The notes under the pieces were generated by a model. That model worked only from the letters and a program-made list of their open reading frames with translations. It ran no database searches and had not been told where the DNA came from. From assembly GCF_048403405.1 (NCBI RefSeq), contig NZ_CP183129.1: a stretch of DNA of 64,000 nt. The stretch is one strand, 5' to 3'. The stretch comes from Escherichia coli (GTDB lineage: Bacteria; Pseudomonadota; Gammaproteobacteria; Enterobacterales; Enterobacteriaceae). Both the position numbers and the translations under genes were made by a program. Below, piece after piece: positions 55,896 to 56,054 of the stretch (the first letter of the stretch is position 1; the number at the start of each line of letters is the position of its first letter).

Positions 55896-56054
55896 AGTGT
55901 ATTACCTTTAATAATTAAGTGTGCCTTTCGGCGATATGGCGTGCTTTACAGATTTTGAAGCGTTAAAGGAATGTGCACTACGAGGGGTATCAACGATAAC
56001 TCTTGAAGGGACTTGCCTTACTACACTGCTTTAATGGTCTGTACGTCAAACCGT
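55896..56054 (-). promoter_or_regulatory. cspA long 5' untranslated leader with cold box (RNA thermosensor)
   Basis: minus-strand sequence ACGGTTTGACGTACAGACCATTAAAGCAGTGTAGTAAGGCAAG... upstream of the ATG matches the known 159-nt cspA leader; AT-rich UP-like element further upstream. Confidence 0.8.

Follow-up and report, generated by a model that had tools for sequence, protein, structure and literature searches.

The question raised by this locus was whether the 159 nt preceding the start codon of cspA constitute an intact copy of the cspA leader of Escherichia coli, and whether that leader is by itself the element that responds to temperature. The analyses were conducted on a 64,000-nt stretch of E. 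coli DNA (the window), and the coordinates of all features are given in Table 1.

Identity of the leader and its place in the locus

The major evidence for the identity of the leader was a 621-nt alignment to the cspA region of K-12 MG1655 (NC_000913.3). All 159 leader positions were the same in the two sequences, and four differences in total were found over the aligned length. Only one of these falls within the 428-nt mRNA. It is a synonymous change (GAC in the window, GAT in K-12) and the sole change in the CDS, so the CspA protein is the same as that of K-12. In the Rfam consensus the altered base, at +247, is part of a hairpin loop, and the window has the consensus base of the model there. 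No change with respect to K-12 was seen in any of the named elements (cold box, GCCGAAAGGC hairpin, AU-rich tract, Shine-Dalgarno sequence, start codon, first nine codons of cspA and terminator).

The assignment was also supported by family membership. Rfam model RF01766 (cspA thermoregulator) matched the minus strand at 56055..55628 over model positions 1-428 of 428, with a score of 501 bits (E = 2.6e-141) against a gathering score of 78 bits, which is far beyond chance. A cspA CDS encoding a cold-shock domain lies on the same strand at the orthologous locus, and the gene order yiaG-cspA-hokA-IS150-glyS was found by synteny comparison to be the same as in K-12. The initial annotation had identified the minus-strand leader up to the ATG as the well-known 159-nt cspA untranslated region and had described it as intact. 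The first statement agrees with the complete base identity, the full-length RF01766 match and the K-12 synteny. As for the second, substitutions in the cold box and helices were sought against K-12 in the 159-nt alignment, and none was found. The same annotation was also right that this is established biology, the canonical cspA leader being already known, and that it represents a structured regulatory RNA outside the list of coding sequences, as a CDS-only annotation misses the 159-nt leader. The cspA leader of the window is thus known, real, functional-looking and ordinary.

Table 1. Features of the cspA locus in the window and differences from K-12 MG1655
Feature	Position	Strand	Basis or remark
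yiaG end	56466..56176	minus	upstream neighbour of cspA
AT-rich tract, UP-element region	56120..56092	minus	cgattaatcataaatatgaaaaataattg; 24/29 A+T (83%); same as K-12
-35 hexamer TTGCAA (K-12: TTGCAT)	56091..56086	minus	K-12 alignment, SNP at 56086
TGG + CTTAAT	56071..56063	minus	-10 hexamer 56068..56063 after TGn extended -10 motif; same as K-12
cspA 5' untranslated leader	56054..55896	minus	159 nt; 159/159 same as K-12; within Rfam RF01766 match
Cold-box hairpin GGUUUG-ACGUA-CAGACC	56052..56036	minus	RF01766 and exact-motif search
Cold-box 11-mer TGACGTACAGA	56048..56038	minus	leader nt 7-17
GCCGAAAGGC tetraloop hairpin ("upstream box" region)	55932..55923	minus	paired in the Rfam consensus and all ViennaRNA folds
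AU-rich tract UUAAUUAUUA, proposed S1 site, then Shine-Dalgarno	55918..55905	minus	sequence; S1 role PMC6386945
Shine-Dalgarno AAGG	55908..55905	minus	sequence
cspA CDS	55895..55683	minus	70 aa + stop; ORF list and K-12 alignment
"Downstream box" segment	55895..55869	minus	first 9 cspA codons; definition PMC6386945
Intrinsic terminator	55658..55628	minus	12-bp hairpin, then T-run; marks 3' end of 428-nt mRNA
Difference 1	56086	minus	T->A, last base of -35 hexamer
Difference 2	55809 (mRNA +247)	minus	synonymous GAT->GAC, Asp codon of cspA
Difference 3	directly past terminator		one extra T relative to K-12
Difference 4	farther downstream of terminator		G->A relative to K-12

The 5' end of the leader was placed at the A at 56054, reading ACGGTTTGACGTACAGACC..., and its 3' end at 55896, the base preceding the ATG. 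The length of the cspA leader has been given as 159 nt (PMC6719143) and as 160 nt (PMC6386945); the RF01766 model starts at 56055, which makes the leader 160 nt. The two values reflect a convention on the 5' end and no discrepancy in sequence. On the minus strand, a 121-nt intergenic stretch separates yiaG from the start of the leader. Small ORFs overlapping the leader, such as that at 56094..55990 (minus strand, 34 aa), were rejected, as this ORF begins upstream of the transcription start and is unsupported.

Downstream of cspA, the hokA/sokA locus holds an IS150 at approximately 53825..55269, as it does in K-12, although the two copies are oppositely oriented. A 41-bp piece of the mok/hokA leader (55310..55270) that is absent from K-12 is retained in the window. 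A short CTTT/TTT repeat flanks the IS150 of the window, and no such duplication accompanies the K-12 copy. An Rfam match to the sok antitoxin was observed at 53747..53901 on the plus strand (83 bits), of which only the first ~80 nt align well. The sok element appears to be truncated by IS150, with the remainder of the match overlapping the IS end at ~53825.

Conservation among E. coli genomes

The cspA locus was found in 5422 of 5426 complete E. coli genomes. The query was split into short pieces in order to resolve single mismatches. The 5' 80 nt of the leader, which include the cold box, were exact in 5396 of the 5422 genomes, and the 3' 82 nt, which include the ATG, in 4626; roughly 15% of E. 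coli genomes have a 3' leader half that is not the same as that of the window. In both variants examined the change was at C137 of the mRNA (window 55919), which is A in AVS0465 and T in SCPM-O-B-8794. This base belongs to the unpaired linker following the GCCGAAAGGC hairpin. The window carries the majority, K-12-type leader.

One further genome, E. coli AVS0967 (NZ_CP124398.1 2511095-2511406), was observed to have an IS1 inside its cspA leader, immediately 5' to the Shine-Dalgarno sequence, and is a natural case of a disrupted cspA leader. Since the leader of AVS0967 is interrupted in this way, an intact leader is not automatic for every E. coli.

Promoter region and the -35 variant

The AT-rich, UP-like element noted upstream in the initial annotation was recovered just 5' of the -35 hexamer (Table 1), and a 17-nt spacer separates the -35 and -10 hexamers. 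The extended -10 motif would contribute to the cspA promoter. All promoter features were the same as in K-12 except for the last base of the -35 hexamer, where the TTGCAA of the window matches the consensus TTGACA at 4/6 positions and the TTGCAT of K-12 at 3/6. A simple promoter scan did not report the established minus-strand cspA promoter, because the -10 hexamer CTTAAT lacks the A required at position 2. A plus-strand "promoter" at 56086..56114 from the same scan was rejected as chance level (2 found vs 2.0 expected).

According to the account of Mitta et al. 1997 given in PMC6386945, the UP element is needed at the K-12 cspA promoter; FIS, H-NS and ppGpp also act on the promoter region (PMC4877382).

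The TTGCAA allele is rare. The exact promoter 61-mer of the window was present in 6 of 5421 complete E. coli genomes, compared to 4361 of 5421 for the K-12 61-mer with TTGCAT. Identity of 100% to window 55600..64000 was observed for the same six genomes only, with the next best at 99.5%. Because the carriers are these six genomes, identical over that whole interval, the SNP was concluded to mark one small clone that includes the window. The variant brings the hexamer closer to consensus and might give a measurable increase in cspA transcription in this lineage, either basal (37 C) or cold-induced, and so be a natural promoter-up allele of the major cold-shock gene; we consider this doubtful, and the variant is put forward as a small, testable lead on natural variation in cspA expression.

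Regulatory motifs and predicted folding of the mRNA

The features of the cold-box csp leaders were found together in the window, namely, a 5' UTR of ~145-160 nt with a cold box near its 5' end and a downstream-box segment. The exact 11-mer TGACGTACAGA occurs once in the 64-kb window. A cold-box-like 11-mer with one mismatch, TGACGCACAGA, was noted inside yiaG at 56384..56374 (minus strand). Sites with one mismatch number three in the window and were dismissed as being in the chance range, as three were also reached in 3 of 100 shuffles. The AU-rich tract, for which an S1 role has been proposed (PMC6386945), together with the Shine-Dalgarno sequence pairs with nt 87-93 in the closed fold, in both the Rfam consensus and the ViennaRNA prediction. 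In the same form, mRNA nt ~193-230, which belong to the cspA CDS, are predicted to pair with the leader. The downstream box has been described as required for translation in the cold, by a mechanism that is disputed in the works cited there (PMC6386945).

Folding was predicted with ViennaRNA at 10-42 C for transcripts of increasing length. Transcripts of up to 160 nt formed one long weak 5' hairpin that left the Shine-Dalgarno region free at every temperature, and the leader alone had the same predicted fold from 10 to 42 C. Fragments of 180-200 nt behaved differently, their predicted optimum being open at 10 C and closed at 37 C; for the 187-nt fragment, the switch was located between 25 C and 37 C. 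From 210 nt upwards, the closed form was optimal at 10 C and 37 C alike. The closed 37 C optimum consisted of the cold-box hairpin (nt 4-20) and a helix enclosing the Shine-Dalgarno sequence and the AUG (74-93/145-163), which contains the helices 74-80/157-163 and 87-93/145-151, together with pairs between the leader and the CDS. These helices agree with the Rfam consensus and with the description in PMC9947658, the published helices having been compared through later papers and the Rfam consensus.

The full-length mRNA was thus predicted to sequester its Shine-Dalgarno sequence at both 10 C and 37 C, and a switch was seen in the 180-200-nt fragments only. Because equilibrium folding keeps the full-length mRNA closed at 10 C, the cold-open form would have to rest on kinetic trapping. 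The predicted closed equilibrium at 10 C is in line with published work in which the cold form is regarded as an intermediate of cotranscriptional folding that has been retained. The barrier from the open to the closed form, estimated along a heuristic direct path, rose from ~46 kT at 37 C to ~80 kT at 10 C; such findpath values are direct-path upper bounds that are physically too high in absolute terms, and the trend alone is usable. With respect to shuffled sequences, the leader alone showed no extra stability (z = 0.07), while the 428-nt mRNA was unusually stable (z = -3.5, 0 of 100 shuffles). In terms of predicted stability, the structured unit is the whole mRNA and not the leader alone.

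Leaders from other genomes were collected by a scan of genome contigs for the pattern GAACCATTTTACN{35,65}GCCNNNNGGC. At least 120 sites matched; most of those listed were chance matches in unrelated phyla, and at least 24 were true enterobacterial cspA-type leaders with 74-99% identity. These came from Escherichia, Citrobacter, Salmonella, Kluyvera, Pseudocitrobacter, Superficieibacter, Enterobacter, Lelliottia, Leclercia and Phytobacter, and one further leader in the set came from an unclassified Proteobacteria metagenome assembly. In the alignment, the GCC/GGC hairpin (GCCGAAAGGC) and GTAAAATGGTTC are invariant because the search pattern required them. The cold-box stem GGUUUG/CAGACC did not vary in 23/23 distinct leaders, while its loop varied. 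Among the 24 highly conserved leaders, covariation for the closed (Rfam) structure was not above that of shuffles (86.6% of cells paired, 1 double-change pair), and for the predicted open structure (80.8% paired, 7 double-change pairs) values as high were obtained in 128 of 500 shuffles.

Proposed mechanism and alternative explanations

The locus is almost certainly the canonical E. coli cspA regulatory unit, in which the promoter and the 159/160-nt leader are followed by the first part of the coding region. As the RNA matches that of K-12, one synonymous loop base aside, K-12 experiments apply directly. By analogy with what is published for K-12, the mRNA would switch its fold with temperature and change in stability in the same manner, and the cold box and UP element would play the same parts. 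Transcription would be driven by the AT-rich UP tract and the TTGCAA-17-TGgCTTAAT promoter. The nascent leader would fold on itself into the long weak 5' hairpin, in which the AU-rich tract, the Shine-Dalgarno sequence and the AUG are accessible. At low temperature this cotranscriptional fold would persist, allowing efficient ribosome loading on a long-lived mRNA. At 37 C, the RNA would refold, after its length has passed ~190 nt, to the closed form in which the leader is paired with the coding region; the Shine-Dalgarno sequence and the AUG would then lie inside a helix, and the mRNA would be degraded in seconds. Located at the very 5' end, the cold box would act as a separate motif that forms a hairpin in the closed form. 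This scheme is modelled on published data. Fragments shorter than 190 nt fold alike at 10, 20 and 37 C, and in longer ones the leader is paired with coding sequence at 37 C, whereas in the cold it folds on itself and the initiation region is more accessible (PMC6386945). At 37 C the mRNA forms a large irregular hairpin in which the Shine-Dalgarno sequence is sequestered (PMC9947658), and the half-life of the mRNA is 12 s at 37 C vs ~20 min in the cold (PMC9800685).

The phrase "cold box thermosensor", under which the leader had originally been listed, was borne out in part. Cold box and thermosensor had been treated as one element and placed in the leader alone. [quoted passage not shown] The explanation that the 159-nt leader alone, acting through its cold box, is the thermosensor could draw on the presence of every named motif in the leader, on its extreme conservation and on the switch in predicted optimum of the 187-nt fragment. 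It was nevertheless judged very unlikely because chimeras carrying only the 5' UTR lacked translation in the cold, the first codons also being required, and because the constant fold of the short fragments noted above was found experimentally as well (PMC6386945). The in silico results point the same way, as the fold of the leader is constant at 10-42 C with a stability no greater than that of shuffles, and RF01766 covers the whole mRNA. By these models, the thermosensor extends past 55896 into the coding region, and both the leader and the start of the CDS are needed.

A different explanation is that cold induction is mainly protein mediated, with CspA or other Csps binding the mRNA and RNase-dependent decay controlling its level, so that the RNA senses the amount of Csp and not the temperature. 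CspA does bind its own mRNA's 5' UTR and aids translation of the 37 C form in the cold (PMC9947658), trans-acting factors in extracts of cold-shocked cells target the leader (PMC6386945), and the change in half-life is large (PMC9800685). Equilibrium folding alone, moreover, leaves the ribosome binding site closed in the cold. This explanation was considered somewhat less likely than not to be the main one. In purified systems without CspA, ribosomes bind the cold-folded mRNA and translate it better, and the cold form gains no stimulation from CspA (PMC9947658); the two mechanisms have been described as joint rather than alternative. That the region could be the leader of cspB, cspG or cspI, or a degenerate copy, would be suggested by the cold box and long leader common to these paralogues (PMC6719143) and by the name given to the gene. 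In most complete E. coli genomes, PGAP labels the gene at 55895..55683 (minus strand) [quoted passage not shown]. This pipeline name is an annotation quirk, with no sequence difference behind the label, and the locus and protein are cspA and CspA. The 100% leader identity to K-12 cspA, the identical protein, the yiaG/hokA synteny and the full-length RF01766 match exclude a paralogue leader, and this reading was given practically no weight.

The canonical cspA unit is accordingly retained, and the regulatory RNA is taken to comprise all 428 nt of the mRNA, not just the leader. This mRNA is among the best-studied regulatory mRNAs of bacteria and is fully intact in the strain, so what is known of cold induction in K-12 should carry over directly to it; the importance beyond annotation is small.

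Comparison with known systems

The closest system is the K-12 cspA mRNA itself, represented by RF01766, with which the window shares the leader, the terminator, the flanking genes and the named motifs, the mRNA being the same bar one loop base. The remaining differences are the -35 hexamer (TTGCAA instead of TTGCAT) and, past the terminator, the extra T and the G->A change. The cspB, cspG and cspI leaders resemble that of cspA in having a 5' UTR of ~145-160 nt, a 5' cold box and a downstream-box region (PMC6719143). They differ in chromosomal locus and in leader sequence, and the window carries the cspA copy only.

The classical heat-opening RNA thermometers ROSE and fourU are like cspA in that mRNA structure gates access to the Shine-Dalgarno sequence and the AUG according to temperature. 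They consist of short zipper hairpins, which melt at equilibrium as the temperature rises. The cspA mRNA, in contrast, works in the opposite direction, with more translation in the cold, and it requires more than 190 nt including coding sequence and apparently depends on a kinetically trapped cotranscriptional fold.
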